Below are positions 23,211 through 58,670 of a DNA stretch of 64,000 nucleotides, piece by piece; within the stretch, counting starts at the first letter, position 1; the number at the start of each line of letters is the position of its first letter. Source of the DNA: Candidatus Oxydemutatoraceae bacterium. GTDB taxonomy: Bacteria > Pseudomonadota > Gammaproteobacteria > Poriferisulfidales > Oxydemutatoraceae. The translations under genes and the position numbers were made by a program. The notes under the pieces were generated by a model. That model saw nothing but the letters and a program-made list of their open reading frames with translations. It did no database searches and had not been told where the DNA came from. The DNA lies in contig CBDCOZ010000003.1 in assembly GCA_965220085.1 (NCBI GenBank), positions 1,024,001-1,088,000 on the forward strand, read 5' to 3'.

Positions 23211-24824
23211 CTATCGCAACGGCCCTTCCAAGAAGAGGCGCAGGCGCAAGCGTATATCAACCCCCAGGTGGATGGTCATCGTATAGGTTTCTGTGCTGTC
23301 TGCGGCGCCATCGTGTACTGTGAAGGTGAAACTGGCGAAGTCGGAGGCGGCGCGGGCGCCAGTCGGGGGATACCAAGTGAAAGTGCCATCCTCCAGATTG
23401 GCAGCGGTCACCGAGGCGCCGTTGGCCACTGCGGTACCGCCATTGCGCAAGGTGCCGGTGCCGGGTGCTATGGTCTCAATGATGGTGATCGCGACCAAGG
23501 CCGCGTTGTTATCATCATCCATGAACGGGAAGTCGGAGACCTTGAAGACGAAGGGCTCGGCTGAGGTTGTGGTTGTGGGCACCTTCACCGAATTGTCGGC
23601 GCTGGTAGGGGCATCGTTGACATTGGCGATGATGTTGCCTGTGGTGCAGCGTCGCTCGCTGTTGGGCGGCGTGAAGTTGTCCTCAAAGGATACGCACACC
23701 CGCACAAACTTGTCGACATGCGCCTGCAACGGCGTGAAAGTGGCGGCGGTGGCCCCGCCAATATCGGCGTAGTTGGGGGGCGCGTCATTGCCCGGAGGAT
23801 CAGCCTGTTGCCATTGCCAGGCGATGGTGGAGCGGTTAATACCAGCATTTCCGTCTGCGACAGTGCCGGTGGTTGCGGTGTGGGTCACATCCTCGTTCCA
23901 GACTGTGCTACCCGCGGGTACCTCCACAGCGGGCAGACCGATGGCCTCCACCTGCGTCGTCGGCCACACCAGGTCTATGGTGATGGTGGCGGAATTGGAA
24001 CTGTCACCAACATCAAGGAAAGTGCCAGCCCGCACAGTGCGCACTCTGAAATCAAAGCTAGTATAGTTGGCCATGGGTGCAGTGACATCATCGGGAAGGA
24101 GGTAGGTCAGGCCCCTGAAAGGGCCTGAAGTTGTCAGACCTGCCTTGGACACTACCGTGTTTGGGGCAAGTACCCTGCTTGATCCCGCATGCAGAGTGCC
24201 TCTGGCGGGTACAGTGGTCAGAGTTATGCGCTCCAGAGTAGCATTGCTATCTTCATCGCTAAAGAGGAAGACATCATCAAACGGGAGTATATAGTAACCA
24301 CCCGTTATAGGCACAGAGATGGTGTTGGGTAGCGCAACCGGGTCATCATTGACATTGGCCACAGCGGTGGCTATCTGCAGGCATCGCTCCTCCTCATTGG
24401 GGGTGGTGGCCATATCCATGAACGACGCGCAGACCTGCAGAAACTTGCCCACCTCATCATCGCCCGGAGTGAATGCGGCATTGGTCGCGCCGGCTATGTC
24501 GGTGTAAGTGCCGCCGTTGGTGTTGGCCGCACTCCATTGCCAGCTGAGGGTGCCCAGGCCATCGGGGTCGGCTATGGTGCCCTGAGCCGCGGTGATGGCG
24601 GAGTCCTCAGTGGGGGTGTTGCCACTGGCGTAGGTGACGGCGGGTGTGCCGGTGGCCGGGCTGTTGGTCTGCGCCTGGGCCGGGTTTGCATACGGCAATG
24701 CAATCAGGGCGAGCAACATCAGCGACCACAGACTCCCGCGGATTCGTGTTGCCCACCATTGCGCGGGAGTCATATCGAAAATTTGACAGATCATATCTAC
24801 GGTTTTAATAACGACATGTTTCAT
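23211..24824 (-). CDS. Secreted Ig/cadherin-like repeat protein ending LRLRLFLEGPLR
   Basis: Hydrophobic signal ending AQA|Q; two WQW..YxDIxGAT..F.P..VCxSF modules alternate with two F.DxD..L..IT..GTL modules; start uncertain. Confidence 0.8.
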   Translation of the reverse strand: MKHVVIKTVDMICQIFDMTPAQWWATRIRGSLWSLMLLALIALPYANPAQAQTNSPATGTPAVTYASGNTPTEDSAITAAQGTIADPDGLGTLSWQWSAANTNGGTYTDIAGATNAAFTPGDDEVGKFLQVCASFMDMATTPNEEERCLQIATAVANVNDDPVALPNTISVPITGGYYILPFDDVFLFSDEDSNATLERITLTTVPARGTLHAGSSRVLAPNTVVSKAGLTTSGPFRGLTYLLPDDVTAPMANYTSFDFRVRTVRAGTFLDVGDSSNSATITIDLVWPTTQVEAIGLPAVEVPAGSTVWNEDVTHTATTGTVADGNAGINRSTIAWQWQQADPPGNDAPPNYADIGGATAATFTPLQAHVDKFVRVCVSFEDNFTPPNSERRCTTGNIIANVNDAPTSADNSVKVPTTTTSAEPFVFKVSDFPFMDDDNNAALVAITIIETIAPGTGTLRNGGTAVANGASVTAANLEDGTFTWYPPTGARAASDFASFTFTVHDGAADSTETYTMTIHLGVDIRLRLRLFLEGPLR

Positions 24825-24844
24825 GCATGCACGATTAGTGCCCT

Positions 24845-25080: not shown

Positions 25081-25090
25081 CTTGATGGCT

Positions 25091-27355: not shown

Positions 27356-27397
27356 CTATCGCAACGGGCATTCAAGGAAGAGGCGCAGCCGCAACTG
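27356..27397 (-). pseudogene. Orphan decayed tail of a LEGPLR-family gene (QLRLRLFLECPLR*)
   Basis: Reverse complement cag ttg cgg ctg cgc ctc ttc ctt gaa tgc ccg ttg cga tag, followed by CGCGAGCGC.CCCCGCG as after 43020 and 58670. Confidence 0.85.
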
Positions 27398-27408
27398 TGC
27401 GGCGGATT

Positions 27409-28314: not shown

Positions 28315-28316
28315 AG

Positions 28317-29710: not shown

Positions 29711-29711
29711 G

Positions 29712-35967: not shown

Positions 35968-36828
35968 CTACCGCAACGGGCCTTCCAGGAAGAGGCGCAG
36001 GCGCAGATTGATCGCGTCCCCGATTATCCGGACGCCGTCGGAGCACAACGGCCCCTCGTTGCCGGGAGTGGTATGCCTGTCCATAAAGCTGATGCAGACC
36101 CTGATGTACATCCACGCCTGATCATCCGCGGGGACAAATATTCTGTTGGTCGCGCCGCTGATGTCGGCATATGCGCCGGTGCGGGCGGGGGATTGTTGCC
36201 ATTGCCAACTCTGGGTGAGAATGTTGATGATATTGAGGTCAACAACATCGGAACTATCGTCCGTCAGTTGCTGACCTCTGTCGTATGTTCTCCGGGGAGG
36301 CGAGCCCGGGGCGATTATCGTGGGCGCGCCGGTGGCTTTTTGTTGCTGGGATGCGCGAAGATGGATGGTGGCCGTGGCGGTACGGGATTCATCGCCGCCG
36401 GCAGTGATGCTGTATGTAAAGGCGGTGTAGTTCAATTGCGCGCTCTGGCTCGGTTGCGGGTAGTAGGTGATGGTGTTGATACTGCCTTCTGCCACATTCT
36501 GGCCTGCGGTGGCGGCGGAGTTGCCTACCCGCATGGTGCCAAGGAGCGGCAGGCTCTTTATCGTGATGTGGTCCAAGGGATCGGAATCTGCGTCAAGAAA
36601 AGGGAAGTCGCTTTTCACGAAGCTGTCCGGGCTGGCGGCGGTGGCGTTGTGCGGCACCCATATTGCGGTGTCCCTGGCCGCCGGTCCGGCCTGTGCGACT
36701 GGCGCGGTCGGGTCTGCGGTGTTGTGCGGTTGGTCGCTATGTGCCTGACCGCAGACGGCAATCAGGACGAGCAACCAGAGGGCGCGACCATCGCTGTTGC
36801 CCGTCGGTTGCGTCAAGGGAGTAAACAT
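35968..36828 (-). CDS. Secreted two-domain Ig/cadherin-like protein ending LRLRLFLEGPLR
   Basis: Signal LWLLVLIAVCGQAHS; same two module types as 23211-24824; TATAAT at 36863-36868 and AAGGA RBS. Confidence 0.8.
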   Translation of the reverse strand: MFTPLTQPTGNSDGRALWLLVLIAVCGQAHSDQPHNTADPTAPVAQAGPAARDTAIWVPHNATAASPDSFVKSDFPFLDADSDPLDHITIKSLPLLGTMRVGNSAATAGQNVAEGSINTITYYPQPSQSAQLNYTAFTYSITAGGDESRTATATIHLRASQQQKATGAPTIIAPGSPPRRTYDRGQQLTDDSSDVVDLNIINILTQSWQWQQSPARTGAYADISGATNRIFVPADDQAWMYIRVCISFMDRHTTPGNEGPLCSDGVRIIGDAINLRLRLFLEGPLR

Positions 36829-42990: not shown

Positions 42991-43020
42991 CGCCTCTTCT
43001 TTGAAGGCCTGTTGCAATAG
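42991..43020 (+). pseudogene. Orphan decayed tail of a LEGPLR-family gene (RLFFEGLLQ*)
   Basis: cgc ctc ttc ttt gaa ggc ctg ttg caa tag, followed by about 140 bp homologous to 58671-58812. Confidence 0.8.
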
Positions 43021-43712: not shown

Positions 43713-46700
43713 ATGCCCCTCCCCCTATTTTTACGAAGGAGAAGTAATCGGAGAGGACGACACGCATGCTACTTTGTTTGTCGCTTCATGCGAATGGGGA
43801 GCAAGGGGGTGACCGGCGTTCGGCATCGCTTGTTGCTTGGCGCATTCGCTATTGCCACAACGGTTTTGGCGTACCCCGTCGCGGCACAGACAGACTACGA
43901 CAGCGACGACGACGGTCTGATAGAGATTACGACACTGGAGCAGCTCGACGCAATCCGGTTTGACTTTGACGGCGACGGAGTGCCCGGCGAGAGCACACCG
44001 ACATATGCGGAGGCATTTCCCGATGCTGCTGACAATATGGTCCAAATGGGTTGCCCGGGCGGAATTTGTAGCGGTTATGAGTTGATGAATGATCTGGACT
44101 TTGACGATCCGACCAGCTATGCCGCGAGCACAGCGAACACAGCCTGGACAAGCGACGCCGGGTGGCCAGCGATCGGAAACGCGACGGACAGCTTCTCAGC
44201 GACGTTTAACGGCAATGGTCATACGATTGCCAACCTGCATATCGACGATAGCACAAGGTTGCAAGGCTTGTTCGGTTACGTGAGCGGCACGGTGTCAAAC
44301 ATCGGCGTGACCGGGGCGGCATCGGTCTTTACCGGCGGCGGCGTGGCGGGCCTGTTGCGCGACGGCACGGTAGAGCGTTCTTATTCAACGGTGTCGGTGA
44401 ACGGTGACAGTTCGGTAGGTTCGTTGCTGGGCCTCCTTGTCCCCGGCACGGTGCGACTGAGTTATGCGACCGGTGTTGTCTTCGTCTCTGCGGGTCTCGG
44501 CGGCGCCAGCGGCGGCTTGCTCGGCGCCAGCTCCGATGATGACCCCTCTGGCAGCAACAAGGCGGAGCATGTCTATGCGACCGGTTTTGTCGATAGAGAC
44601 AGAGGGGGTGCCAACAACTCTGCCGGCGGTTTGCTGGGCTCTCCGGGTCTGTTAGAGTTGCAATACGCTTACACCACCGCCTTGGTTGGCGGCAGCGGAG
44701 GGCAAAGCGGCGGTTTGGCCGGCGGCAATGACGATGACTTTTCGGCGACAGCGGTGTATTGGGATACCGAGGCATCGGGCCGGGCTGTGGCGATTCCGTC
44801 GGCGGCTAAAACCGGCGTTGATGGGCGGACCGCCGCCGAGTTGCAAGCGCCGACGACCTATGCCGGCATCTACGCCAACTGGGACGAAGGCGACACCGCA
44901 GACTACTGGGACTTCGGCAACGCCTCGCAATACCCGGCATTAAAGATCGACTTTGACAACAACAGCGACGCGAGTTGGGAAGAATTCGGTTATCAGTTGC
45001 GCGAGGGCCCGCGCCTGCGCGAAGGCTTGCAACGCGTGACACAAGACAAGATTGACTTTGACCTGCGCTGGAGCGCGCCGGATACTTCGCACTGGGACAG
45101 CCCGCCGCAGATCAGTTACCGTATCTACCGTGACGGTTCGGCCTTGGAGATCGGGGCCGATGACATCGGCGAGACCCTCGATGCGAACGGCGATACTGTC
45201 TATTCCTATGCCGATGCGGGTCTGTCAGGCGACACTGTTCATATCTATCACATCGCCGCGGTCGTGGGCGGCGGCGAGCCGAGCCGCAGCGCGATCGTAT
45301 TTGAAGCAGACTACGACCGCGACGACGACGGTCTGATAGAAATCAACACACTGGAACAACTCAACGCCATCCGCTGGGACCCGGACGGCGACGGAAAACC
45401 CGCGAACGCAAGCTCACGGACCTACGCGGAAGCCTTCCCCGGCATCACGGACAACACGGGTTGTCCGGACACTTGCGGCGGCTATGAGCTAATCAACGAT
45501 TTGGACTTTGAAGACCCGCGCAGTTACGCCGTCGCCGACCCCTTGGACTATGACTGGATTGATAACCCCGACGATGGCAATGCGGAAGAAGGCTGGCCGC
45601 CGATTTCGGGCTTCACGGCGACTTTCAACGGCAACGGCCATGCCGTTTACAACCTGTATGTCAGCCGCAATGCAAACGACCAGGGCCTGTTCGGTTCCGT
45701 TAGCGGCACGATTACAAACATCGGCATCACCGGTTTGATCGTGTCCCCGGTTTTCTTTGCCGGCGGCTTGGCGGGCCAGTTGAACAACGGCGGCATGATA
45801 GAGAAATCTTACTCTGCGGTAGCGGTGGAAGACGGCATATGGAGCGGTTCCTTGGCGGGCATGATGAACGGCGGCGCGGCGGTGCGACTGAGCTATGCGA
45901 GCGGTGTTGTCAACGCCTCTGCGAACGCCGGCGGGTTGCTGGGCGTCACTTTGGATGCGCTTATTCCTAACACGACCACAGAGACTTTGGAGCATGTCTA
46001 TGCGACCGGCTTTGTCGATGCATCCGATGCCGGCAACGCCGGCGGCTTGACCGCCACAGTAGGGGCGTTGCGACTGAAATATATCTATGCCACCGCCTTG
46101 GTGAGCGGCAGCGGGGAGGGGAGCAGCGGTTTGGGCGGCTATGACGAAGCAGGCTTCGCAGCGACGGCGGTATATTGGGATACCGAGACCTCGAACCAGA
46201 GTGTCGGGGTTGCCACACGCTCGGGGATGCCTGTGACCGGCGTTGAAGGCAAGACGACCGCCGAGTTGCAAGCGCCGACGACCTACACCGGCATCTACGC
46301 CAACTGGGACGAAGGCGACACCGCCGACTACTGGGACTTCGGCACCGCGGAACAATACCCGGCATTGAAGATTGACTTTGACAACAACGATATGGCGAGA
46401 TGGCAGGAGTTCGGTTATCAATTACGCGAAGGCCCGCAAAATGTGGAAATCTCCGCCGCCAGCGCTACCGGCATAACACTGAGTTGGACTGCGCCCGATA
46501 CCTCGCACTGGGACAACCCGCCGTCGGTGACTTACGCCCTCTACCGTGACGGCGCGCCCTTGAGCCTTGCCGCCGATGCCATCGCCGAGACTGCCGATGC
46601 GAACGGCGATGTTGTCTATTCCTATGCCGATTTGGGCGCATCCGCCGACACTGCGTATCGCTACCACATCGCCGCAACCGTTAACGGCGGCGAGCCGAGT

Positions 46701-49700
46701 CGTTCCTATGTGTTTGCCGGACGGCTGGGGGTGACGGACAGAGACGCCGCCTTAAACACAATTGCCGAGAGCGGTACGACGGGCACGGCGGTTTCGGGGT
46801 TGCGGTTGTCGGTAACAGAGATGGGCGCGGCGCCGTTTGGCGACGTGATTTGGGGTTTGGATGATCCGACCGACACCTTCGGGATCAGCGCTGCCAGCGC
46901 CGAGATCGGCTTGCTCGCGAGTGACACGCTGGATTACGCAAGCACGCGAACTTATTCCGTAGCGGTGACGGCAACGCTGGACGGAACGGAATTGCCCCCG
47001 CTGCCACTGACGATAAACGTTTTGAATGACATAGAGAATGTTCGGGTTCAGGATGACGACCCGTCGCCGAACCGGGTTCTTGAGAACACGCCGATAGACA
47101 CGCCGATATCGGGCTTGTCGCTGGCGGCGTATGAAATGCCCGCTTCCGGCGGGTCTGTCGAGTTGGAACAAGCGACATGGAGCTTGGCGGATAATGCCGA
47201 TTTTGACCCGTACACGGGCGGCATATTTGCGATTGATGCCGCCGCCGGCACATTAACTTTGGTCGCTGCGGCGGATTACGAAACCTCGTCGCAACATTCT
47301 GTGTGGGCGGTCGCCGCCGTAACGCATCCCATAACAGGCGATGTGTTGCGAGGAGGCGAGCGCTTTGAGGTGCGGGTTGTCAACATACCGGAGACGTTGA
47401 CGATTATGGATGGCGACCCCGCCGCCAACACCATCGCCGAGAATGCGACAACCGGCACGGCGGTGACCGGTATCGCCTTGCAAGCGCACGAAGATGATCT
47501 GCCCCTGACCGGCGGCGCGGATTTCAGATGGGAGTTGACAGATACCGCTGCCGACCTGTTCGCGATTGACCCTGTTAGCGGCGAGATAACATTAGTTGCG
47601 AGTGGCATGCTGAACTACGAAGACATCGGCGCTCGCACCCATAGCGTGACGGTGCGGGCTGTGGCAGGCGCCGTGGTATCCGATGACTTGGAGCTGACGA
47701 TAAGCGTTTTGAATGTGCCGGATACCTTGACGATTATTGATAGCGATATGAACGCCAATACCATCGCCGAGAATGCGGTGGCGAACATGCCGGTGACCGG
47801 CATTGTCCTGAGCGCAAGCGATGAAGCGGGCGCTACGGTGAGCGCTGTGACTTGGAGCGTAGCGAGTAGCCCGACCGATCTGTTCACGATAGATGCAGGC
47901 GGCGCTGTCAGGCTGAGTGCTTCGGACACTTTGGATTACGAGACGACAACGATGCATACGATAGAGGTGCGGGGCATGGCGGACGGCATACGGTCCGACA
48001 CATTGTCCCTGACAATCGTCGTGACCGACTTTGATGAGACGATCGTCCCGCCGACCGTGACCGACGCCGACCCTGCCGCCAACACCATTGCTGAGAACAG
48101 TACGGACACGGCAGTCAGCGGGGTGGCGTTGGCGGCGATACGGGACGGCAACCAGCTAAGCGACATCACATGGATACTGACCGACGATGCCGACGGCCTG
48201 TTCGTGATTGCCACCGACACCGGCGTCATCAAAACCGCGACCGATCGCGCGCCGGATTACGAAGCGGCTGTGAGACATGCTGTGACGGCGGTCGCCATCG
48301 CCGCCGACGGCAGCATCGTCGCGCTTGATTTGCCGATAGAGGTGCGAAATGTGCCGGAGAGCCTGACGATTGCGGATAGCGATACGAACGCCAACGCCAT
48401 CGCCGAGAACGCGACGACGGGCACCGAGGTAGCGGGCATCAATCTGACGGTGACCGACGAGGGTGGCGATGGGGTAAGCGGAGTGAGCTGGAGCTTGGAG
48501 AGCACCCCGACCGGTTTGTTCGGGATTGATACCGACGGTGTCATCACTTTGGCAGCGAGCGGCAGGCTGGACTACGACGCGGGTGCGCGCAACCATAGCG
48601 TAATGGTAACCGCCGCCGCCGCCGGTTATCAGTCTGCCACAGCGACATTGACAATAAACGTAACGAATGTGCTGGAGGAGCTGAAGATAGCGAACAGAAG
48701 CACGGGTACTACGATAGCGCTTGCCGAGGATGCGACAACCGGCACCGGCACCGTGGTACCGGGCATCGATCTGGAAGTGACCGACGAAGCGGATAGGGAA
48801 GTGACAGAAGGGCTGACTTGGAGTTTGGTGACGAATCCGGGCAACTTGTTCGCGATAAGCACGACCAGTGGCGAGATTACATTAGCCGGCAAATTGAATT
48901 ACGAGGCGGCAACGCAACACACAGTGATGGTGCAAGCCGCCAAAGGCGAAATAAATTCCGCTCCGTTCTCGCTGACGATAAGGGTGACCGTTTCCTGCGC
49001 CGCGCCGGCGACATTGAACTCAGCGACGAATGTTTGCGAGTGCAGTGCGCCGAATGTGGGAATGGGTTCGGATTGTCAAGCGCCAAGCGTACAGGTTTGC
49101 GGGGCTTTGATGCCGCCGAAGTTTTTCAGAGAGACAGCCTGCGTTGATTTTGTTTTCTGCGACGCACCGATGGTATTAGACGCAATGACGAATACGTGCG
49201 TGCCGCCGCAGTTGCGGATTGCGGACACCGCTGAGGGCGCAAACGAGATAGCCGAGACTGCGACGACGGACACTGAGATAGCGGGTGTGACATTGGAAGC
49301 GCAATACCCCGCTGGCGTTGCGGTGAGCGGTGTGACTGTGACCTGGGGCTTGAGCGATAATGCCGACGGCTTGTTCACAATAGGCAGCGCCAGCGGTGTC
49401 ATCACTTTGGCAGCGAGCGGCAGGCTGGACTACGACGCGGGTGCGCGCAACCATAGCGTAATGGTAACCGCCGCCGCCGCCGGTTATCAGTCTGCCACAG
49501 CGACATTGACAATAAACGTAACGAATGTGCTGGAGGAGCTGAAGATAGCGAACAGAAGCACGGGTACTACGATAGCGCTTGCCGAGGATGCGACAACCGG
49601 CACCGGCACCGTGGTACCGGGCATCGATCTGGAAGTGACCGACGAAGCGGATAGGGAAGTGACAGAAGGGCTGACTTGGAGTTTGGTGACGAATCCGGGC

Positions 49701-52700
49701 AACTTGTTCGCGATAAGCACGACCAGTGGCGAGATTACATTAGCCGGCAAATTGAATTACGAGGCGGCAACGCAACACACAGTCACGGTGCAAGCCGCCA
49801 AAGGCGAAATAAACTCCGCTCCGTTCTCGCTGACGATAAGGGTGACCGTTTCCTGCGCCGCGCCGGCGACATTGAACTCAGCGACGAATGTTTGCGAGTG
49901 CAGTGCGCCGAATGTGGGAATGGGTTCGGATTGTCAAGCGCCAAGCGTACAGGTTTGCGGGGCTTTGATGCCGCCGAAGTTTTTCAGAGAGACAGCCTGC
50001 GTTGATTTTGTTTTCTGCGACGCACCGATGGTATTAGACGCAATGACGAATACGTGCGTGCCGCCGCAGTTGCGGATTGCGGACACCGCTGAGGGCGCAA
50101 ACGAGATAGCCGAGACTGCGACGACGGGCACTGAGATAGCGGGCGTGACATTGGAAGCGCAATACCCCGCTGGCGTTGCGGTGAGCGGTGTGACTGTGAC
50201 CTGGGGCTTGAGCGATAATGCCGACGGCTTGTTCACAATAGGCAGCACCAGCGGTGTCATCACTTTGGCAGCGAGCGGCAGGCTGGACTACGACGCGGGT
50301 GCGCGCAACCATAGCGTAATGGTAACCGCCGCCGCCGCCGGTTATCAGTCTGCCACAGCGACATTGACAATAAACGTAACGAATGTGCTGGAGGAGCTGA
50401 AGATAGCGAACAGAAGCACGGGTACTACGATAGCGCTTGCCGAGGATGCGACAACCGGCACCGGCACCATGGTACCGGGCATCGATCTGGAAGTGACCGA
50501 CGAAGCGGATAGGGAAGTGACAGAAGGGCTGACTTGGAGTTTGGTGACGAATCCGGGCAACTTGTTCGCGATAAGCACGACCAGTGGCGAGATTACATTA
50601 GCCGGCAAATTGAATTACGAGGCGGCAACGCAACACACAGTGACGGTGCAAGCCGCCAAAGGCGAAATAAATTCCGCTCCGTTCTCGCTGACGATAAGGG
50701 TGACCGTTTCCTGCGCCGCGCCGGCGACATTGAACTCAGCGACGAATGTTTGCGAGTGCAGTGCGCCGAATGTGGGAATGGGTTCGGATTGTCAAGCGCC
50801 AAGCGTACAGGTTTGCGGGGCTTTGATGCCGCCGAAGTTTTTCAGAGAGACAGCCTGCGTTGATTTTGTTTTCTGCGACGCACCGATGGTATTAGACGCA
50901 ATGACGAATACGTGCGTGCCGCCGCAGTTGCGGATTGCGGACACCGCTGAGGGCGCAAACGAGATAGCCGAGACTGCGACGACGGACACTGAGATAGCGG
51001 GTGTGACATTGGAAGCGCAATACCCCGCTGGCGTTGCGGTGAGCGGTGTGACTGTGACCTGGGGCTTGAGCGATAATGCCGACGGCTTGTTCACAATAGG
51101 CAGCGCCAGCGGTGTCATCACTTTGGCAGCGAGCGGCAGGCTGGACTACGACGCGGGTGCGCGCAACCATAGCGTAATGGTAACCGCCGCCGCCGCCGGT
51201 TATCAGTCTGCCACAGCGACATTGACAATAAACGTAACGAATGTGCTGGAGGAGCTGAAGATAGCGAACAGAAGCACGGGTACTACGATAGCGCTTGCCG
51301 AGGATGCGACAACCGGCACCGGCACCGTGGTACCGGGCATCGATCTGGAAGTGACCGACGAAGCGGATAGGGAAGTGACAGAAGGGCTGACTTGGAGTTT
51401 GGTGACGAATCCGGGCAACTTGTTCGCGATAAGCACGACCAGTGGCGAGATTACATTAGCCGGCAAATTGAATTACGAGGCGGCAACGCAACACACAGTG
51501 ATGGTGCAAGCCGCCAAAGGCGAAATAAATTCCGCTCCGTTCTCGCTGACGATAAACGTATTGAATGTGCTGGAGGAATTGAAGGTAGCGAACGGCGGCA
51601 GCGGCGAGATAGCGCTTGCCGAGAATGCGACAATCGACACCGTGGTACCGGGCATCGCTCTGGAAGTGACCGACGAGGACGATAACACAGTGAGCGGCGT
51701 AGAGTGGAGCTTGGCGAGCGCCCCGAGCGGTTTGTTTGCAATAGGCAGTACCAGCGGTGTCATCACTTTGGCAGCGAGCGGCAGGCTGGACTACGACGCG
51801 GGTGCGCGCAACCATAGCGTAACGGTAACCGCCGCCGCCGCCGATTATGAGCCTTCCACACTGACACTGATAATAAACGTATTGAATGTGTTGGAAGAGT
51901 TGGCGATATCCGACAGCGATGCGGCTGCCGCGATGATATCGGAGGCGGCGGTCTTTGGTTCCGCGCTAACGGGCGTGGCCTTGACAGTCTCGGCGGAAGA
52001 GGGAGGAACGATTCCGGATTTAACCTGGAGATTGTCGCGCAATCCGAACAGAGCATTTGCAATAGCCTCGACCAATGGCGCGATTACGTTGGCACGAGAG
52101 GGCGTATTGGATTTTGAGACGGCTCCGAGCATAGACATAGAGGTTATAGCGACACCGCGGAATATAAGGACCGAAGTGCCGGAGTCAAACCCATTCCCAA
52201 TCACGGTGACGGTGACGAATGCCTTGGAGACATTGGAGGTTGACGATACCGCCCGCGCCGATAACAGTATCTCTGAGAACGCTGCGACAGGTACGGCGGT
52301 AGCGGGCGTTGTTCTGGAAGCAACCGACGAAGACGCCAATCTGGTGAGCGGAGTGACCTGGATCTTGAAGAGCACCCCGGCCGATCTGTTCACGATAGAC
52401 AACAATCCGGGCGTAATCCGCTTGGTTGCCGGCGGCAGGTTGGATTTTGAGACCACGCCGAGCGTCGCAGTGATGGTGCAAGCCGCCAAAGGCGAAATAG
52501 AGTCCGCTCCGCTCTCGCTGACGATAGCGGTGGAGGATGCCTTGGAGAATCTGACAGTTCGCGACAGCAACGCCGACGCGAACAGGATTGCCGAAGATGC
52601 GGCGACCGGTACGCAAGTTCTGGGTATCGCACTGAGTGCAAGCGAAACCGATAATCCGGTGAGCGGCGTGAAGTGGAGCCTGAGCGATGCGAGCGGTCTG

Positions 52701-55700
52701 TTCGCAATAGGCGCCGATACGGGCGTAATCAGTCTGATTGCCGGCGGCAGTTTGGATTTTGCGACCACGCCGAGCGTCGCAGTGATGGTTCAAGCCGAAA
52801 AAGACGAAATCACTTCGGATCCGCTTGATCTGACAATCACGGTGCTGGATACCGATGAGAATATCCGGATTGTTGACACCGCCGGCGATGACCTCTTCGC
52901 GGCGATAGACGAAGATGCGGAGGCGGGCGATGCGCTGTCCGGTTTGGCTCTTGTCGCAAGAGACGCCGCCGCTAACGTCTTGACCGGCGTGGTTTGGAGC
53001 CTGAACGATGATGCCGACAGCCGGTTTGCGATTGCGACTGACACGGGTGTGATTACGGTGGCCGGCATGTTGGATTATGAGACGACCCCGACCCACACGG
53101 TGGTGATTCGGGCGACACACGAGGGGAATTCAAGCGACTTTGTATTGCAGGTGAATGTGGGGAATGTCTTGGAGACCTTGGCTGTGACAGACTCCGACGA
53201 TGATGCCAACACGATAACGGAGAACGCGACTTCGGGCACCGCGGTGAGCGGTATCGCATTGAGAGTGACCGACGAAGGCAGCAGGCCGGTGACAGAAGGG
53301 CTGGATTGGATCTTGGCGTCCGACCCGAGCGGCTTGTTTGCGATTTCAACCGACGGCGCAATCACCGCGACCGCGCCATTGGATTATGAGACGACCCCGA
53401 CGACCCACACGGTGATGGTTCAAGTCGCAAAAGGCGACATCACTTCGTCGGCGGTTGAACTGACGATAGATGTGGGGAATGTCTTGGAGCTCTTGACTGT
53501 GACCGACTCCGACGAAGATGACAACACGATAGCGGAGACGGCGACTTCGGGTACCGCGGTGGCCGGCATAGCTTTGGCAGTGACCGACGAAGGCGGCAGG
53601 CCGGTGACAGAAGGGCTGACTTGGAGCTTGGTGACGAACCCCGGCAACTTGTTCGCGATAAGCGTGAGCGGCGGCGAGATTGCCTTGGCCGGCGAAGCGG
53701 ACTATGAGACGACCCCGACCCATGTGCTGAGGGTGGCGGCAGCGGCGGATGGCATAAGCGATGCGATAGAGTTAACGGTAGAGGTTCAAAACGCGCTGGA
53801 GACATTGATGATCTCCGACAGAGACGACGATGCGAACGAGATTGTCGAGAATGTGGCAACGGCCACGGCGGTGTCGGGCATAGATTTGGCGGCGCTTGAC
53901 GAAGCGGGCACGGAAGTGACAGACGGACTGGTCTGGAGACTGACCGAGAATGCGGACGGCAGGTTTGCAATTGATTCGGATAGCGGCGTCATCACCGCGG
54001 GCCGGGCGTTTGATTATGAGACATCAACTCAGACGAGTTTCTCGGTAACGGTTGCGGTCACAAAAGACGGGGTGGATTCGGCCCCGCTGAGTCTGTCGAT
54101 AGCCCTGAGGAATGTGTTGGAGAGCCTGACCTTGGAAGACATTAACGCGGCGGCAAACGGCATCGATGAGAATGCATTGGCGGGCGTTGCGGTGTCGGGC
54201 ATTAGCTTTGTGGCAAGGGATGAAGCGGGCAATGAGGTCACCGCCGGCCTGACATGGACTCTGCCCGAAAGCGCCGGCGATTTGTTTGTGATAAGCAACC
54301 AAGGCGTGATCAGCGTAACGAAGGTAACGAGCGAGGCTCTGGATGCCGAGAATGTTGCCGACTACGCATTGCAAGCGCGGGTATCAAAAGACGGGGTGGA
54401 TTCAAACATAGCGGATGTGCCCGTTGTTGTGCGGAATTTGTTGGAGGAATTGACGATAGCGAACGGCGGTAGCGGCGCGATAGCGCTTGCCGAGGATGCG
54501 ACAACCGGCGCCGTGGTGCCCGGCATCGCTCTGACCGCGACCGATGAGGGCGGCAATGCGGTAAGCAGCGCGACCTGGAGCCTGACCGATGCGAGCGGTC
54601 TGTTCGCAATCAGCGCCGATACGGGCGTCATCAGTCTGATTGCCGCAAACACATTGGACTATGATATTGAGGCGTTGCGGAGTCATACGGTGAGGGCGCA
54701 AGCGAGCAAAGACGGCGTGGTTTCGGGCCCGTTTGCGCTGACGATAGATGTCACGGACGTGTTGGAGACCTTGCAAATTGTCGATAACAATCCCGCCGAG
54801 GATACGATTATTGAGAACGCGGCGAGCGGCACGGCGGTGTCGGGCATAGAGTTGGCGGCAGAAAATGAAGCGGGCGATTCGGTGCGCGATGTGCTTTGGA
54901 GTCTGACCGATAATGCGGGCGGCTTGTTTGCGATTTCAACCGCCGGCGCAATCACCGCGACCGCGCCATTGGATCATGAGACGACCCCGACCCACGCGGT
55001 CATAGTGCGAGCCGAGAAAGACGGAATAAATTCCGCTCCGTTCTTGCTGACGATAGCGGTCGGGGATGTGTTGGAGAGACTGACGGTTGCCGACGGCAAC
55101 GCTGATGCGAACAGGATTGCCGAAGATGCGACGTCCGGCACGCAAGTTCTGGGCATCACACTGAGCGCAAGCGACGAAAAATCAGAGGCGGTGACCGATG
55201 TGACCTGGAGCCTGAGCGATGATGCCGGCGGTCGGTTCGCGATCAGCGCCGATACGGGCGTAATCAGTCTGATTGCCGACAGCGGTTTGAATTTTGCGAC
55301 CACGCCGAGCGTCGCAGTGACGGTTCAAGCCGAAAAAGACGGCGTTCATTCGGCTGGGTTTGAGTTGCCAATCACGGTGCTGGAGGTCAATGAGAATGTT
55401 CTGATTGTTGACATCGAGGGCGATGACGCCTTTGCGACGATAGACGAGGATGCGACGACAGGCACGATGCTATCCGGCGCGCGTCTGGTCGCGCGAGATG
55501 CCGACTCTGCCGAGTTGATGACCGGCGTGACTTGGAGTCTGAGCGATGCCGCCGGCGGCCTGTTTGCGATTGCGACTGACACGGCCGTGATTACGTTGAC
55601 CGGCATGTTGGATTACGAGACGACCCCGACCCACACGGTGGTGATTCGGGCGACACACGAGGGGAATTCAAGCAACTTTGTATTGCAGGTCAATGTCGGG

Positions 55701-58670
55701 AATGTCTTGGAGAGCCTGACTGCGACAGACTCCGACGAGGATGCCAACACGATAGCGGAGACGGCGACTACGGGTACCGCGGTGGCCGGCATAGTTTTCG
55801 CGGCGACCGACGAAGGCGGCAGGCCGGTGACAGAAGGGCTGACTTGGAGCTTGGCGGCTGATCCGAGCGGCTTGTTTGCGATTAGCACCGGCGGCGAAGT
55901 GACATTGATTGGCACGGCGGACTACGAGACGACCCCGACCCACACGGTGATGGTTCAAGTCGCAAAAGGCGGCACCACTTCGTCGGCGGTCGCACTGACG
56001 ATAGATGTGACGAATATTCCGGAGACACTGACCGTAACAAATGCCGACAGCACGGGGACAGCCATGATTGCGGTCGCGGAGAACGCAATCATAGGCACCA
56101 GGGTGCCGGGCATCCGGCTTATCGTGACCGACGAAGCGGGCACGGAAGTGGCGGAAGGGCTGACTTGGAGTTCAACCAGCACCTTGTTTATGGTCAATCC
56201 GGCTACCGGCGTGATTGCGACAAGCGCCGCATTGGATTATGAGACTGCGACGAGCCACACGATAACAGTCACGGCGGCTTCCGGCGGTGTCAGCGGCAGC
56301 ATCGGCTTGACGATAGATGTGGAGGATGTGCTGGAGACGCTGGCGATTACAGACGACGATCCTGCCGCTAATACAATTCCCGAGAATGCGTCGATTGCCT
56401 CAGTGGCGGGTGTGGATTTGACCGTGGCGGATGAAGGCGGCAATCCCGTAACCGGAGTGGCCTGGGCCCTGACCGATAACGCCGGCGGCAGGTTTGAAAT
56501 CAATCCGAACTTTGACTTGATTACAGCGACAGCGCCGTTGGATTATGAATCATCGACAAACTTCGTGATAATGGTTCGCGCCACAAGCGACGGGGTGAAT
56601 TCCGCCTCGTTCCCGATGACGATAGAGGTGACGAATGTATTTGAGACCTTGAAAATTGTTGATAACAATGCCGCTGACAATACGATTGCCGCAAACGCCG
56701 ACACAGGCGCCATAGTTGACGGTGTTGAACTGGAGGCAATCCCTGACATCGACGAAGGTCGCTCCATAGCATGGATGTTGGTCGATAACTCCGAGGGGCT
56801 GTTCCAAATAGATGCGCACACCGGTGTCATCAGCCTGATGAGCGGCGGCGCGCTGGATTATGATGCGAGGCAGAGCCACACTGTGAGAGTGCAAGCTCAG
56901 GCAGTCGGCGGTCCTGAAGGCAGCGAGGATGTGCGGTCCAATGTGTTGGAAGTGATAATTGCAGTAGGGACAGACTACGACCGTGACGACGATAACCTGA
57001 TAGAAATCACGACACTGGAACAACTCGACGCGGTGCGCTACGATCTGGATGGCGACGGCAAGCCGTCTACGGGCAGCCAGACTGCTTATGAAATGGCATT
57101 CCCCGACGCCGCCGTTGCCATGGGTTGTGCCAGCGCCTGCACCGGATATGAATTATTGAACGGGCTTGATTTCGCCGCCACGACGAATACGGCATGGACA
57201 AGCGGCGAAGGTTGGGAGCCGATTGGCGATGGCGGCAATCACTTTACGGCGATATTCAATGGCAATGGCAATACGATTGCCAACCTGCATATCAACCGCA
57301 ACGCGGACAGCCAAGGCTTGTTCGGCGTGATTGGCGGCAATGGCACGGTAACAAATGTCGGCGTGACCGGTTCGGTGACTAGCGATGGCTATATTTACGC
57401 CGGCGGCTTGGCAGGCCGATCGTATGGCGGCGCGATAGAGCGGTCTTACTCAACAGTGTCAGTGAATATTGACGATGGGATAGCCGGCTCATTGCTGGGC
57501 TTTGGCACCGGCGGCGAGGTGCGCGCAAGTTATGCGACCGGCAATGTGCATAGCGGCGGTTCTTATGCGGGCGGTTTAATCGCCGGTACTAATGCTGACA
57601 GCAGGGCAGAGCATGTCTATGCAACCGGATATGTAAACGTGACCGATTCGGATCGTGGATTAGTTGGCGGTTTATTTGGCGCCTTCACTAATCGACTCAG
57701 CCTGATTAATTATGCTTACTCCACCGCGTTTGTTAATCCTACTGCGCGATTCAGAGGCGGTATCAGCGGAGGAAACGAGTCCAGTAACAGCATATTTGCC
57801 TCTGTTTATTGGGATACCGAAACCTCCGGTGTGACTGCTGCAGTCGGAGCGGGCGTTTCCGACGGTATCACGGCGCAGACAACCGCCGGATTGCAAACTC
57901 CGACAACCTACACCGGCATCTATGCCAACTGGAACGCGAATGATGCCGATGGCAATCCGACCGATTATTGGGACTTCGGTGAGAACGACGAATACCCGGC
58001 ATTGAAGATTGACTTTAACAACGACGACAGGGCGAGCTGGCAGGAGTTTGGTTGTCAGTTGCGCCAAGGCCCGATAGGGTTGGGAATTGCGCCTGGCAAT
58101 ACGGACACGGCAATATTGAACTGGACAGCGCCCGACACATCGCATTGTGCTAACGCGGGGATTACGTATCGCGTCTATCGTGGCGGGGTGGCGCTCGCAT
58201 CGACTGCGGCTGTAACATATACGGCGCCCGGGGCAACGGAAGGCGCCACATACTATGTCGCGGCGGTTATCAACGGCGGCGAGGCGAGTCGCTCCGCAAT
58301 AGCTTACAGTCCGCCCATCCCCCCGGCATTGACGATTGCGGATAGCAACGATGCTGACAATGCCATCGCCGGAGATGCGGCGGCAGGTACGGAGGTATCC
58401 GGCATTGAACTGATTGTGCGCGATGAGAACGGCGCGGATGTGACGGATGATGTGAGCTGGGAGTTGACCGATAACGCGGACGGCATGTTCGCAATAAACG
58501 CCGAGGGCGTAATCACTGTCGCAGGCGCGTTGACCGCAGGAGATCAAACGATAACGGTTCAAGCCGAAAGGGACGGAGTGACTTCGGATCCGTTTGAGTT
58601 GATAATAACTGTGGAAGCCAGCGTGCTGAGGTTGCGTCTGCGCCTCTTCTTGGAAGGCCCGTTGCGATAG
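43713..58670 (+). CDS. Giant secreted adhesin-like protein: 3 GLUG-type modules, roughly 30 cadherin-like repeats, 3 Cys-rich modules, ending LRLRLFLEGPLR
   Basis: Signal ending PVAA|Q; DYDxDDDGLIEI..LEQL, FNGNGH..GLFG and GGL.G repeats; ..I.ENA..GT.V..W.L..LFAI..G.I..LDYE cadherin repeats; true start may be GTG 43809. Confidence 0.88.
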   Translation: MPLPLFLRRRSNRRGRHACYFVCRFMRMGSKGVTGVRHRLLLGAFAIATTVLAYPVAAQTDYDSDDDGLIEITTLEQLDAIRFDFDGDGVPGESTPTYAEAFPDAADNMVQMGCPGGICSGYELMNDLDFDDPTSYAASTANTAWTSDAGWPAIGNATDSFSATFNGNGHTIANLHIDDSTRLQGLFGYVSGTVSNIGVTGAASVFTGGGVAGLLRDGTVERSYSTVSVNGDSSVGSLLGLLVPGTVRLSYATGVVFVSAGLGGASGGLLGASSDDDPSGSNKAEHVYATGFVDRDRGGANNSAGGLLGSPGLLELQYAYTTALVGGSGGQSGGLAGGNDDDFSATAVYWDTEASGRAVAIPSAAKTGVDGRTAAELQAPTTYAGIYANWDEGDTADYWDFGNASQYPALKIDFDNNSDASWEEFGYQLREGPRLREGLQRVTQDKIDFDLRWSAPDTSHWDSPPQISYRIYRDGSALEIGADDIGETLDANGDTVYSYADAGLSGDTVHIYHIAAVVGGGEPSRSAIVFEADYDRDDDGLIEINTLEQLNAIRWDPDGDGKPANASSRTYAEAFPGITDNTGCPDTCGGYELINDLDFEDPRSYAVADPLDYDWIDNPDDGNAEEGWPPISGFTATFNGNGHAVYNLYVSRNANDQGLFGSVSGTITNIGITGLIVSPVFFAGGLAGQLNNGGMIEKSYSAVAVEDGIWSGSLAGMMNGGAAVRLSYASGVVNASANAGGLLGVTLDALIPNTTTETLEHVYATGFVDASDAGNAGGLTATVGALRLKYIYATALVSGSGEGSSGLGGYDEAGFAATAVYWDTETSNQSVGVATRSGMPVTGVEGKTTAELQAPTTYTGIYANWDEGDTADYWDFGTAEQYPALKIDFDNNDMARWQEFGYQLREGPQNVEISAASATGITLSWTAPDTSHWDNPPSVTYALYRDGAPLSLAADAIAETADANGDVVYSYADLGASADTAYRYHIAATVNGGEPSRSYVFAGRLGVTDRDAALNTIAESGTTGTAVSGLRLSVTEMGAAPFGDVIWGLDDPTDTFGISAASAEIGLLASDTLDYASTRTYSVAVTATLDGTELPPLPLTINVLNDIENVRVQDDDPSPNRVLENTPIDTPISGLSLAAYEMPASGGSVELEQATWSLADNADFDPYTGGIFAIDAAAGTLTLVAAADYETSSQHSVWAVAAVTHPITGDVLRGGERFEVRVVNIPETLTIMDGDPAANTIAENATTGTAVTGIALQAHEDDLPLTGGADFRWELTDTAADLFAIDPVSGEITLVASGMLNYEDIGARTHSVTVRAVAGAVVSDDLELTISVLNVPDTLTIIDSDMNANTIAENAVANMPVTGIVLSASDEAGATVSAVTWSVASSPTDLFTIDAGGAVRLSASDTLDYETTTMHTIEVRGMADGIRSDTLSLTIVVTDFDETIVPPTVTDADPAANTIAENSTDTAVSGVALAAIRDGNQLSDITWILTDDADGLFVIATDTGVIKTATDRAPDYEAAVRHAVTAVAIAADGSIVALDLPIEVRNVPESLTIADSDTNANAIAENATTGTEVAGINLTVTDEGGDGVSGVSWSLESTPTGLFGIDTDGVITLAASGRLDYDAGARNHSVMVTAAAAGYQSATATLTINVTNVLEELKIANRSTGTTIALAEDATTGTGTVVPGIDLEVTDEADREVTEGLTWSLVTNPGNLFAISTTSGEITLAGKLNYEAATQHTVMVQAAKGEINSAPFSLTIRVTVSCAAPATLNSATNVCECSAPNVGMGSDCQAPSVQVCGALMPPKFFRETACVDFVFCDAPMVLDAMTNTCVPPQLRIADTAEGANEIAETATTDTEIAGVTLEAQYPAGVAVSGVTVTWGLSDNADGLFTIGSASGVITLAASGRLDYDAGARNHSVMVTAAAAGYQSATATLTINVTNVLEELKIANRSTGTTIALAEDATTGTGTVVPGIDLEVTDEADREVTEGLTWSLVTNPGNLFAISTTSGEITLAGKLNYEAATQHTVTVQAAKGEINSAPFSLTIRVTVSCAAPATLNSATNVCECSAPNVGMGSDCQAPSVQVCGALMPPKFFRETACVDFVFCDAPMVLDAMTNTCVPPQLRIADTAEGANEIAETATTGTEIAGVTLEAQYPAGVAVSGVTVTWGLSDNADGLFTIGSTSGVITLAASGRLDYDAGARNHSVMVTAAAAGYQSATATLTINVTNVLEELKIANRSTGTTIALAEDATTGTGTMVPGIDLEVTDEADREVTEGLTWSLVTNPGNLFAISTTSGEITLAGKLNYEAATQHTVTVQAAKGEINSAPFSLTIRVTVSCAAPATLNSATNVCECSAPNVGMGSDCQAPSVQVCGALMPPKFFRETACVDFVFCDAPMVLDAMTNTCVPPQLRIADTAEGANEIAETATTDTEIAGVTLEAQYPAGVAVSGVTVTWGLSDNADGLFTIGSASGVITLAASGRLDYDAGARNHSVMVTAAAAGYQSATATLTINVTNVLEELKIANRSTGTTIALAEDATTGTGTVVPGIDLEVTDEADREVTEGLTWSLVTNPGNLFAISTTSGEITLAGKLNYEAATQHTVMVQAAKGEINSAPFSLTINVLNVLEELKVANGGSGEIALAENATIDTVVPGIALEVTDEDDNTVSGVEWSLASAPSGLFAIGSTSGVITLAASGRLDYDAGARNHSVTVTAAAADYEPSTLTLIINVLNVLEELAISDSDAAAAMISEAAVFGSALTGVALTVSAEEGGTIPDLTWRLSRNPNRAFAIASTNGAITLAREGVLDFETAPSIDIEVIATPRNIRTEVPESNPFPITVTVTNALETLEVDDTARADNSISENAATGTAVAGVVLEATDEDANLVSGVTWILKSTPADLFTIDNNPGVIRLVAGGRLDFETTPSVAVMVQAAKGEIESAPLSLTIAVEDALENLTVRDSNADANRIAEDAATGTQVLGIALSASETDNPVSGVKWSLSDASGLFAIGADTGVISLIAGGSLDFATTPSVAVMVQAEKDEITSDPLDLTITVLDTDENIRIVDTAGDDLFAAIDEDAEAGDALSGLALVARDAAANVLTGVVWSLNDDADSRFAIATDTGVITVAGMLDYETTPTHTVVIRATHEGNSSDFVLQVNVGNVLETLAVTDSDDDANTITENATSGTAVSGIALRVTDEGSRPVTEGLDWILASDPSGLFAISTDGAITATAPLDYETTPTTHTVMVQVAKGDITSSAVELTIDVGNVLELLTVTDSDEDDNTIAETATSGTAVAGIALAVTDEGGRPVTEGLTWSLVTNPGNLFAISVSGGEIALAGEADYETTPTHVLRVAAAADGISDAIELTVEVQNALETLMISDRDDDANEIVENVATATAVSGIDLAALDEAGTEVTDGLVWRLTENADGRFAIDSDSGVITAGRAFDYETSTQTSFSVTVAVTKDGVDSAPLSLSIALRNVLESLTLEDINAAANGIDENALAGVAVSGISFVARDEAGNEVTAGLTWTLPESAGDLFVISNQGVISVTKVTSEALDAENVADYALQARVSKDGVDSNIADVPVVVRNLLEELTIANGGSGAIALAEDATTGAVVPGIALTATDEGGNAVSSATWSLTDASGLFAISADTGVISLIAANTLDYDIEALRSHTVRAQASKDGVVSGPFALTIDVTDVLETLQIVDNNPAEDTIIENAASGTAVSGIELAAENEAGDSVRDVLWSLTDNAGGLFAISTAGAITATAPLDHETTPTHAVIVRAEKDGINSAPFLLTIAVGDVLERLTVADGNADANRIAEDATSGTQVLGITLSASDEKSEAVTDVTWSLSDDAGGRFAISADTGVISLIADSGLNFATTPSVAVTVQAEKDGVHSAGFELPITVLEVNENVLIVDIEGDDAFATIDEDATTGTMLSGARLVARDADSAELMTGVTWSLSDAAGGLFAIATDTAVITLTGMLDYETTPTHTVVIRATHEGNSSNFVLQVNVGNVLESLTATDSDEDANTIAETATTGTAVAGIVFAATDEGGRPVTEGLTWSLAADPSGLFAISTGGEVTLIGTADYETTPTHTVMVQVAKGGTTSSAVALTIDVTNIPETLTVTNADSTGTAMIAVAENAIIGTRVPGIRLIVTDEAGTEVAEGLTWSSTSTLFMVNPATGVIATSAALDYETATSHTITVTAASGGVSGSIGLTIDVEDVLETLAITDDDPAANTIPENASIASVAGVDLTVADEGGNPVTGVAWALTDNAGGRFEINPNFDLITATAPLDYESSTNFVIMVRATSDGVNSASFPMTIEVTNVFETLKIVDNNAADNTIAANADTGAIVDGVELEAIPDIDEGRSIAWMLVDNSEGLFQIDAHTGVISLMSGGALDYDARQSHTVRVQAQAVGGPEGSEDVRSNVLEVIIAVGTDYDRDDDNLIEITTLEQLDAVRYDLDGDGKPSTGSQTAYEMAFPDAAVAMGCASACTGYELLNGLDFAATTNTAWTSGEGWEPIGDGGNHFTAIFNGNGNTIANLHINRNADSQGLFGVIGGNGTVTNVGVTGSVTSDGYIYAGGLAGRSYGGAIERSYSTVSVNIDDGIAGSLLGFGTGGEVRASYATGNVHSGGSYAGGLIAGTNADSRAEHVYATGYVNVTDSDRGLVGGLFGAFTNRLSLINYAYSTAFVNPTARFRGGISGGNESSNSIFASVYWDTETSGVTAAVGAGVSDGITAQTTAGLQTPTTYTGIYANWNANDADGNPTDYWDFGENDEYPALKIDFNNDDRASWQEFGCQLRQGPIGLGIAPGNTDTAILNWTAPDTSHCANAGITYRVYRGGVALASTAAVTYTAPGATEGATYYVAAVINGGEASRSAIAYSPPIPPALTIADSNDADNAIAGDAAAGTEVSGIELIVRDENGADVTDDVSWELTDNADGMFAINAEGVITVAGALTAGDQTITVQAERDGVTSDPFELIITVEASVLRLRLRLFLEGPLR
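48536..51555 (+). repeat. Near-identical intragenic tandem repeat, about 3.5 x 858 bp
   Basis: Identical shadow ORFs at 48629, 49487, 50345 and 51203; the 286-aa unit is two cadherin-like domains plus an 8-Cys module. Confidence 0.96.

Follow-up and report, generated by a model that had tools for sequence, protein, structure and literature searches.

A short C-terminal peptide on about 200 proteins of a gammaproteobacterium looks like a protein-sorting tag of a new architecture

Three proteins encoded in a 64,000-nucleotide stretch of the genome of a Candidatus Oxydemutatoraceae bacterium, here called the window (C3:1024001-1088000; genome of 2,492,841 bp in 3 contigs, 99% complete), share the same C-terminal end, LRLRLFLEGPLR, directly followed by a stop codon. 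We refer to this peptide as the tag. The first gene, at 23211..24824 on the minus strand, encodes a protein of 537 amino acids (aa) with an extended signal peptide and cadherin/Ig-like passenger modules, and its tag, IRLRLRLFLEGPLR, lies at 23214-23255 with the TAG stop at 23211-23213. The second, at 35968..36828 on the minus strand, encodes a 286-aa protein with a signal peptide, two Ig/cadherin-like beta-sandwich domains and a variable linker; here the tag is INLRLRLFLEGPLR, at 35971-36012, followed by TAG. The third gene, at 43713..58670 on the plus strand, encodes a giant protein of 4985 aa with cadherin repeats and a GLUG motif, and its tag, LRLRLRLFLEGPLR, occupies 58626-58667 with the TAG stop at 58668-58670. 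Sec-type signal peptides can be seen by eye in all three proteins, ending in ...LIALPYANPAQAQ before T, ...LIAVCGQAHS before D and ...TTVLAYPVAAQ before T.

Searching the window with a 26-nucleotide (nt) consensus of the tag, allowing at most 3 mismatches, gives 5 matches, while 0.00 are expected from 100 shuffles. These are the three intact tags and two orphan copies without a cargo open reading frame (ORF). The orphan at 27360-27385 (minus strand), a tag remnant ending in ...QLRLRLFLECPLR and a stop, carries the replacement FLECPLR and abuts the 3' end of a methyltransferase-like gene. The degenerate orphan at 42991-43016 (plus strand) reads ...PRLFFEGLLQ before its stop, with the replacements FFEGLLQ. 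The sequence downstream of it resembles the flank after the tag of the 4985-aa gene, and it is therefore a remnant of the 3' end of a former upstream paralogue. An earlier note on this stretch of DNA had claimed that the three proteins carry N-terminal signal peptides and end in the same peptide at a TAG stop, and that the intact copies vary synonymously whereas the orphans carry replacements; the ORFs, their ends and the pattern of variation are all as it described.

The same peptide is found throughout the genome. In a six-frame scan, 212 stop-to-stop ORFs end in the tag motif, and a degenerate DNA pattern search recovers the same 212 copies, with 0 matches for the reversed pattern. The commonest peptides are LRLRLFLEGPLR (136), LRLRIFLEGPLR (33) and LRLRVFLEGPLR (24), and the stop that follows is TAG in 133 ORFs, TAA in 52 and TGA in 27. 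Together, the tagged ORFs total 493,422 nt, i.e., 19.8% of the genome, and the largest encode proteins of 15,193, 14,212, 13,236, 9,776, 6,024 and 4,985 aa. The consensus over the family is [IVL]R[LVI]R[LVIA][RK][VL]FLEG[PA]L[RQE]-COOH. The tag is thus a peptide of ~14 residues, in which an amphipathic strand of ~10 residues, alternating between hydrophobic and basic, is followed by G-[PA]-L-x.

Selection acts on the tag peptide, as the earlier note had proposed. When the copies are defined by DNA alone (201 matches at <=5 mismatches), the 9 codons inside the search pattern show 514 synonymous versus 70 non-synonymous differences from the consensus, and the single changes open to these codons number 24 and 57, respectively. 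Per possible site, non-synonymous change is therefore ~0.06 times as frequent as synonymous change. In the 5 upstream codons outside the pattern, the differences are 418 synonymous to 220 non-synonymous (possible 15 to 30). The stop stands directly after the tag in 197 of the 201 copies. The conservation is codon-periodic and fades ~14 codons before the stop and ~9 nt after it. The bases that follow the stop of tagged ORFs are conserved too (consensus CGCGAG, 63-82% per position; 58671-58679 in the window is an example), which suggests that the unit of exchange between tagged genes reaches slightly past the coding end.

The tag is also modular. An alignment of 21 tagged C-termini with unrelated upstream sequence has only the last 13-14 columns in common, and six or more unrelated sequence contexts precede the tag. 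In 21 paralogues of the 286-aa protein, the last domain and the tag are separated by a linker with indels, whose length varies by 2-9 residues. The AlphaFold2 model of the 286-aa protein has a mean predicted local distance difference test score (pLDDT) of 80.1, with the two beta-sandwich domains above 90; the last strand of the domain is found at 266-269, and residues 271-286 are coil with a pLDDT of ~60. Structurally, Foldseek matches this model to tandem Ig/cadherin-like domains (Sap S-layer domains 4-5, E 1e-5; N-cadherin EC1-2, 2e-4). The modularity that the earlier note had claimed, i.e., a tag on signal-peptide proteins of differing domain make-up, is borne out by the 21 unrelated C-termini and by the signal-peptide-like regions discussed below. 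The same note had named a simpler explanation, that the motif is the last strand of the preceding Ig-like fold, and this is contradicted by the variable linker, the unrelated domains and the predicted coil.

The motif does not correspond to a described family. The three tagged proteins have no NCBIfam match at the C-terminus at E<=10, a Pfam scan of 13 tagged proteins gives no match over the tag, and full-text literature searches for the tag motif strings returned no relevant paper. Further, the tag has no transmembrane helix of the tripartite signals, no autotransporter barrel, no terminal aromatic, no RTX repeats and no domain of the size used in type IX secretion (T9SS), all of which agrees with the earlier note. 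The tag looks like a genuine protein-sorting tag of a new architecture, previously undescribed.

A comparison with known systems makes clear where it differs. In 10.1101/2023.06.07.544157, the known small C-terminal sorting signals are described as tripartite, with a signature motif, then a transmembrane helix and then a cluster of Arg. Like these signals (LPXTG, PEP-CTERM, GlyGly-CTERM, MYXO-CTERM), the tag is found at the extreme C-terminus, in many copies, with an invariant signature, on diverse cargo with signal peptides, and it has attributes 1, 2, 3 and 6 as given in that paper. However, the tag has no helix, and the protein ends 3 residues after E-G-P. There is no terminal cluster of 2-5 basic residues, as the Arg of the tag alternate inside the strand, and neither an NCBIfam match nor a candidate intramembrane protease was identified. 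The T9SS C-terminal domain likewise marks many Sec-exported surface proteins at their C-terminus, has no membrane helix and is read in the periplasm or outer membrane; however, it is a folded domain of ~70-100 residues (PF18962/TIGR04183) in Bacteroidota, while the tag has 13-14 residues and belongs to a gammaproteobacterium. A search of the genome for PF18962 is empty, and the control genomes are equally silent. The tagged proteins differ from type I substrates in their Sec-type signals (175/189) and in having no PF00353 among the 13 scanned, with no HlyD above cut-off. Finally, a terminal alternating-hydrophobic strand, which might fill a gap in the sheet of another protein, is shared with donor-strand complementation in chaperone-usher and type V pili, a likeness by sequence pattern only. 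Here, no usher and no acceptor missing a strand were identified, and the cargo consists of cadherin/Ig-like repeats and enzymes, not pilins.

The cargo is of the exported kind. Above the curated cut-offs, the 13 scanned tagged proteins match Cadherin, subtilase (Peptidase_S8), Calx-beta, PPC and DUF5006, and below them Cadherin_3, Cadherin_4, Big_9, fn3, GLUG and the RGI-lyase beta domain; 6 of the 13 have no Pfam match at all. No cytoplasmic-type Pfam family is found in these 13 proteins. By a simple heuristic, a signal-peptide-like region is present in 175 of the 189 tagged ORFs that are 120 aa or longer, and 134 also have an in-frame start upstream of it. A leader motif, M[NK]RQ.F[ND]T, is present in 35 of the 189 tagged versus 2 of 1842 untagged crude ORFs, in cysteine-poor and cysteine-rich cargo alike. 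At C1:153259-166492 of G000, a TonB-dependent receptor gene is followed by genes for two tagged proteins of the subtilase type, 1356 and 2037 aa long, which have Calx-beta domains.

Many tagged genes are preceded by homopolymeric tracts. Poly-C/poly-G runs that reach 9 nt or more number 90 in the genome, most of them 13-28 nt in length, and there are only 2 A/T runs (poly-C examples are found at C3:96394, 99748 and 103074). Tagged ORFs have 83 of these 90 runs within 400 nt of their 5' ends; the coding strand reads poly-C in every case and encodes a poly-proline stretch of a long leader. Among the 83 tract-bearing ORFs, an in-frame start is present upstream of the tract in 29 and absent in 53, and 34 of those 53 also have no start codon upstream of the signal-peptide region. 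From their sequences, the poly-C-led tagged genes look like ON/OFF contingency, that is phase-variable, loci. Reads were inspected at five poly-C tracts; apart from artefactual poly-C piles, these sites are nearly uncovered in the raw Hi-C run, and the contigs break at tracts. As the study that covers this bacterium includes a Hi-C library, it seems to have been sequenced alongside a larger organism.

One such gene lies at the end of the window. At 59194..64000 on the plus strand lies the 5' part of another giant gene of this family, which then leaves the window; it starts at a 21-nt poly-C tract (59197-59217). Its tagged end is found beyond the window, at window coordinate 76172, after an apparent frameshift. 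The gene is apparently split into ORFs of 4223 aa (59194-71865) and 1448 aa (71826-76172), and only the latter has the tag.

The origin of much of the cargo can be traced through homologues of the 537-aa protein. There are 99 of these, 34 in the same genome and 65 external. In the genome itself, 33 of 34 are tagged, the one exception being a pseudogene (relic 1, below), while 0 of the 65 external homologues are tagged. The closest autotransporter-passenger homologues have 45-53% identity. P0008, P0011 and P0048, which have complete ends, contain the same passenger ('...TMTINLVPP') followed by a linker and a PF03797 barrel, and P0036 is a passenger homologue with a truncated end. A search with the barrel of a homologue identifies 29 proteins, on contigs of up to 830 kb, several of them with poly-proline leaders. 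Of 29 inspected barrel ends (27 of those proteins plus P0048 and P0125), 26 end in ...L[RLH]W, with the consensus [YL]RL[RQ]ARLRW. The barrel-bearing lineage also has a subtilase with a barrel fragment (P0125).

With the Pfam model PF03797, no match is found in the genome, nor in the 13 tagged proteins. A lineage-specific barrel profile, however, detects two decayed barrel relics. Relic 1 (C3:835474-836034) is an open frame of 190 aa, 64-70% identical to the last two-thirds of the barrel and ending in WRLQARVRW before the stop. As the passenger of this poly-C-led gene is in another frame, the relic is a pseudogene that arose by an internal deletion. Relic 2 (C3:1518860-1518535, minus strand) is a frameshifted barrel end of ~100 residues that keeps its own last strand, DLRLRARLRW, and it lies directly downstream of a tag with its stop, ...ITINLAEHLLLRLRIFLEGPLR. 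Relic 2 shows that a tag cassette took the place of the linker and the front of a barrel. We thus read the tag as having replaced the autotransporter barrel in this lineage. It could be asked whether the tag is simply the last strand of the barrel without its Trp; this idea is weakened by relic 2, where the barrel's own strand is kept after the tag, and by the presence of the tag in relatives without autotransporters. The passenger homologues are absent from the 18 family relatives, and we read the autotransporter-type cargo as re-tagged in this lineage, with the tag and the system for type II secretion (T2SS) native to the family.

The comparison with type Va autotransporters follows from this. 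The passenger is homologous (P0008, P0011, P0036, P0048 and others carry PF03797), the signal peptides are long in both, and the tag occupies the position of the linker and barrel, with an alternation of hydrophobic residues and Arg like that of the last barrel strand. However, the tag has 14 residues versus ~280, the 12-stranded barrel (PF03797) is absent here apart from the two relics, and cargo other than autotransporters carries the tag as well, as do relatives that lack autotransporters.

A second cargo family is cysteine-rich. About 42 of the 189 tagged ORFs have more than 3.5% Cys, with up to 105 Cys in 1,566 aa, while 26 barrel-bearing homologues have 0.2-1.2%. The external homologues of this family have neither barrel nor tag; instead, a conserved CRGLFKHLR.CN...NPFFCG..C module closes 32 of the 41, and poly-proline stands at the start of many. 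The module is absent from this genome, and the tag stands in its place, so the tag has replaced two C-terminal modules that are unrelated to each other. Among the external proteins, P0133-P0172, which are homologues of L082 from other uncultured bacteria, have in common a C-terminal module of ~45 residues, ...FPCRGLFKHLRSCNLEFNRKALNPFFCGEKCG...C. Phase-variable proteins may thus carry a further C-terminal module that is still uncharacterised. In P0132 and P0136, the Arg-rich C-termini were considered as analogous tags but are probably frameshifted gene calls.

Outside this genome, the tag is the trait of a single family of Gammaproteobacteria with small genomes. Searched against 1.84 billion representatives, a profile of the 21 C-termini gives 72 matches at E<=0.001, of which 69 are from the genome itself, 1 is spurious and 2 are external. 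The external proteins are P0228, which ends in ...LLLRLRLFLEGPLQ and whose best match in this genome has 34.5% identity, and P0230, which ends in ...LRLRLRVFLEGPLQ. The earlier note had mentioned Bacteroidota proteins in which similar 'VFLEGP' strands start a domain; none is found at E<=0.001 in this profile search, which was not aimed at it. The strict DNA pattern, with CGN as the last codon, has 0 matches in other-genome contigs, metagenome contigs and 40 relatives; these zeros hold for the strict form only, as the relatives end in Q, E, P or an Arg encoded by AGA. The Q-ending form is absent from the metagenome contigs. With the last codon relaxed, 53 genomes of the order give 214 matches in this genome, 4 in G012 and 1 in G011, and 0 in the 34 genomes of the other three families of the order; the reversed control is empty. 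No tag is found in 400 genomes sampled across the class.

The earlier note had suggested counting terminal-motif matches in this genome and in others. In addition to the 212 ORFs described above, profile matches at E<=0.05 are found in 11 of the 18 family relatives (g3 5/5, g4 4/5, g2 2/4, g5 0/3, g6 0/1). Matches were inspected in G002, G007, G011, G016 and G018 (profile) and in G012 (pattern); those in G003, G006, G010, G015 and G017 are counted from the profile search as such. Of the 30 best profile matches inspected in the first five genomes, 29 are exact C-termini followed by a stop. The tag reads ...IRVRVKVFLEGPLR in G011, ...IRLRIKVFLEGPLQ and variants in G002 and G007, and ...RLRIRVFLEGALE in G016 and G018, each directly before the stop, and many of the tagged open frames in the relatives are 4,292-16,069 aa long. 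Other genera encode the same peptide with other codons, for example AGA, GGT and CCA in G011. The BamA identity to the family relatives is 42-52%, so the tag has been kept over a deep divergence. Only two named relatives of BamA are found, from uncultured Gammaproteobacteria, at 34-39% identity.

Which machinery could read the tag? The genome has one Omp85 protein, which is BamA, one TolC and two secretins, which belong to a complete T2SS operon and to pilMNOPQ, respectively. Neither TamB nor the usher (PF00577; the E. coli control is positive) has a match in the genome. Slam has no match either, and its controls are equally silent. For HlyD of the type I system (TIGR01843), none of the 19 family genomes has a match above cut-off. 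For folded periplasmic proteins, the T2SS is the one recognised route that the genome offers. GspC is present in 19 of 19 family genomes versus 0 of 22 genomes of other families, and PF03797 is above cut-off in 11 of 11 genomes of f2, in 1 of f3 and in none of f1. f1 (GspC in 18/18 relatives, no PF03797) and f2 (PF03797 in 11/11, with up to 32 copies in a 2.0 Mb genome, no GspC) are sister families, whose outer-membrane export styles are mutually exclusive. Among the outer-membrane candidates, those that end in an aromatic residue are of ordinary kinds (TonB receptors, FadL, porins, CopB), and two candidates without a Pfam match are conserved in the family. BamA has only 4 lineage-specific substitutions and a normal first strand. 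A complex prediction of BamA 345-765, GspC 60-283 and a tagged C-terminus (160-286) scores 0.00, which is evidence neither way.

We suggest, with a probability of roughly 0.65, that the tag is an export or display signal that is read in trans. The tag is native to the family, where it ends giant repeat proteins. In this genome, recombination has spread it onto at least two unrelated cargo families, where it displaced the autotransporter beta-barrel and the C-terminal module of the cysteine-rich family. It is now carried by ~200 Sec-exported, mostly adhesin-like proteins, many of them behind phase-variable-looking poly-C. After Sec export, a machine in the envelope could read the free C-terminal strand in trans, most plausibly via beta-strand augmentation, and either move the protein across or onto the outer membrane or hold it there. 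As such a machine would act in trans, the cargo would need no barrel of its own.

The T2SS is the leading candidate for this machine, although we consider the assignment doubtful. It fits the cysteine-rich cargo, and cysteine-rich proteins would not pass a type V barrel. As Sec-dependent folded exoproteins and adhesins, among them subtilase, PPC-domain and cysteine-rich proteins, the tagged proteins would resemble T2SS substrates that are retained at the surface, and the T2SS is universal in their family. Docking to the barrel assembly machinery (BAM), on the other hand, fits the chemistry of the strand, and fits neither the folded cargo nor the missing aromatic.

Several observations weigh against a trans-read signal, or against the T2SS as its reader. 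We know of no linear T2SS signal, and cargo of up to 15,193 aa (with frames of 16,069 aa in relatives) is, to our knowledge, without precedent and far beyond the known T2SS substrates; the giant sizes thus argue against the T2SS. The system is also present in 7 family genomes without a detected tag, and its co-distribution with the tag at the level of the clade is in effect a single evolutionary event. No partner gene is common beside the tagged genes in G011 and G012, which have few copies. The tag may end in R, Q, E or P, and with this variation a PDZ groove or another pocket for the carboxy terminus would not be the obvious choice of reader. By the heuristic, 14 of the 189 tagged ORFs have no signal-peptide-like region, although at least 2 of these have one by eye and several are fragments. 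Finally, the ~9 conserved nt past the stop, the arrays, the orphan copies and relic 2 indicate that exchange at the DNA level is also active.

In the window, a coiled-coil gene at 26284-27084 (plus strand) is one of 13 paralogues that encode coiled-coil proteins with a C-terminal membrane anchor, a conserved N-terminus (MKKPKNLKAEDAA...DAGFDK) and a weak CCDC90-like Pfam match. Ten of the 13 genes lie within two genes of a tagged gene. The family was considered as a partner of the tag and rejected, since its presence in the family relatives does not track that of the tag. Between a tagged gene and this coiled-coil gene, 25101-25903 (plus strand) contains two short ORFs of tandem peptide repeats, TCRTPRAILRASRPLEAV... 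and ...KPRHIGHPEQ..., which suggests a tandem DNA repeat.

Among the alternatives, the one that survives best, and which we still find unlikely, is that the tag mimics a beta-signal: the strand would pair with an open barrel edge, either the first strand of BamA or another one, and the passenger would be threaded as in type V secretion, from C to N, without its own barrel. In length and in alternation the tag matches a membrane beta-strand, and it is placed exactly where the homologues have linker and barrel. The last barrel strand of the homologues, [YL]RL[RQ]ARLRW, also alternates between Arg and Leu, and a single Omp85 is present in the genome, with neither TamB nor any other type V translocator. 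However, an outer-membrane beta-signal belongs to a barrel and has a terminal aromatic, while the tag is not in a barrel, ends in R (Q/E in relatives) and has G-P after the strand. The cysteine-rich, presumably disulfide-bonded cargo is tagged too, and the tag is older than the barrel replacement, as it is found in relatives without autotransporters. Relic 2 with its own last strand downstream of the tag and the few substitutions and normal first strand of BamA also argue against this mimicry, and a stably docked strand would presumably block BAM.

A somewhat less probable alternative is that the tag is purely a surface anchor, a cationic amphipathic strand that, once its protein has been exported by a different route, binds lipopolysaccharide or the outer leaflet and keeps an otherwise soluble exoprotein on the cell. 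The alternating basic/hydrophobic strand may resemble known lipid A-binding loops, and the tag replaced an anchoring domain, the barrel. However, the crossing of the outer membrane by 200 diverse proteins is then left unexplained, and the invariant FLEG[PA]L core suggests that the reader is a protein and not a lipid.

It is quite improbable that the tag serves quality control or translation, either as a degron for a periplasmic protease or as a nascent-chain element that slows termination and couples the synthesis of long proteins to export. Its very C-terminal position beside the stop, its Arg-rich composition with a G-P and the fact that no partner was found are in line with such a role. However, no likeness to known arrest peptides or degrons was found, with no search aimed at one, a degron on a fifth of the coding capacity seems implausible, and the tag replaces export or anchor domains in two families.

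We give even less weight to the tag as a recombination handle at the DNA level, which together with the shared 5' leader would shuffle cassettes for antigenic variation, the peptide itself having no sorting role. The tandem arrays, the cargo-less orphans and the conservation past the stop fit such a handle, as do the leader motif of the tagged ORFs, the poly-C tracts and relic 2, in which a tag cassette has recombined into a barrel gene. However, the ratio of ~0.06 and the preservation of the peptide with different codons in genera whose BamA has just 45-52% identity speak for the peptide, and a handle has no need of an exact placement at the stop (197/201). The weakest explanation, the tag as last beta-strand of a preceding Ig-like domain, can practically be set aside: the tag is strand-like and many cargo domains are beta-sandwiches, yet it follows six or more unrelated contexts, after an indel-bearing linker, and is predicted as low-confidence coil past a strand that ends at 269.

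Returning to the signal read in trans, it can tentatively be speculated, as a proposal that may well turn out otherwise, that a single strand of ~14 residues suffices in trans for the surface delivery of Sec-exported proteins of 130 to >15,000 residues. This would be an unrecognised pathway of outer-membrane export or display, in a lineage that discarded its barrels and re-tagged ~200 phase-variable proteins. If the tag is a sorting signal, it would represent a new route in diderms to or beyond the outer membrane that uses neither a helix, nor a folded C-terminal domain, nor a barrel. The lineage would then be a natural experiment in which autotransporter passengers have been freed of their own translocator, with a bearing on the role of the barrel in type V secretion. 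A portable display tag of 14 residues would also be useful for the engineering of surface display. For annotation, the tag explains a fifth of the genome and the giant genes of the whole family, and it provides a simple marker of the surface proteome. Together with the ~83 poly-C tracts, the tagged genes would be among the largest candidate phase-variable surface repertoires per megabase.

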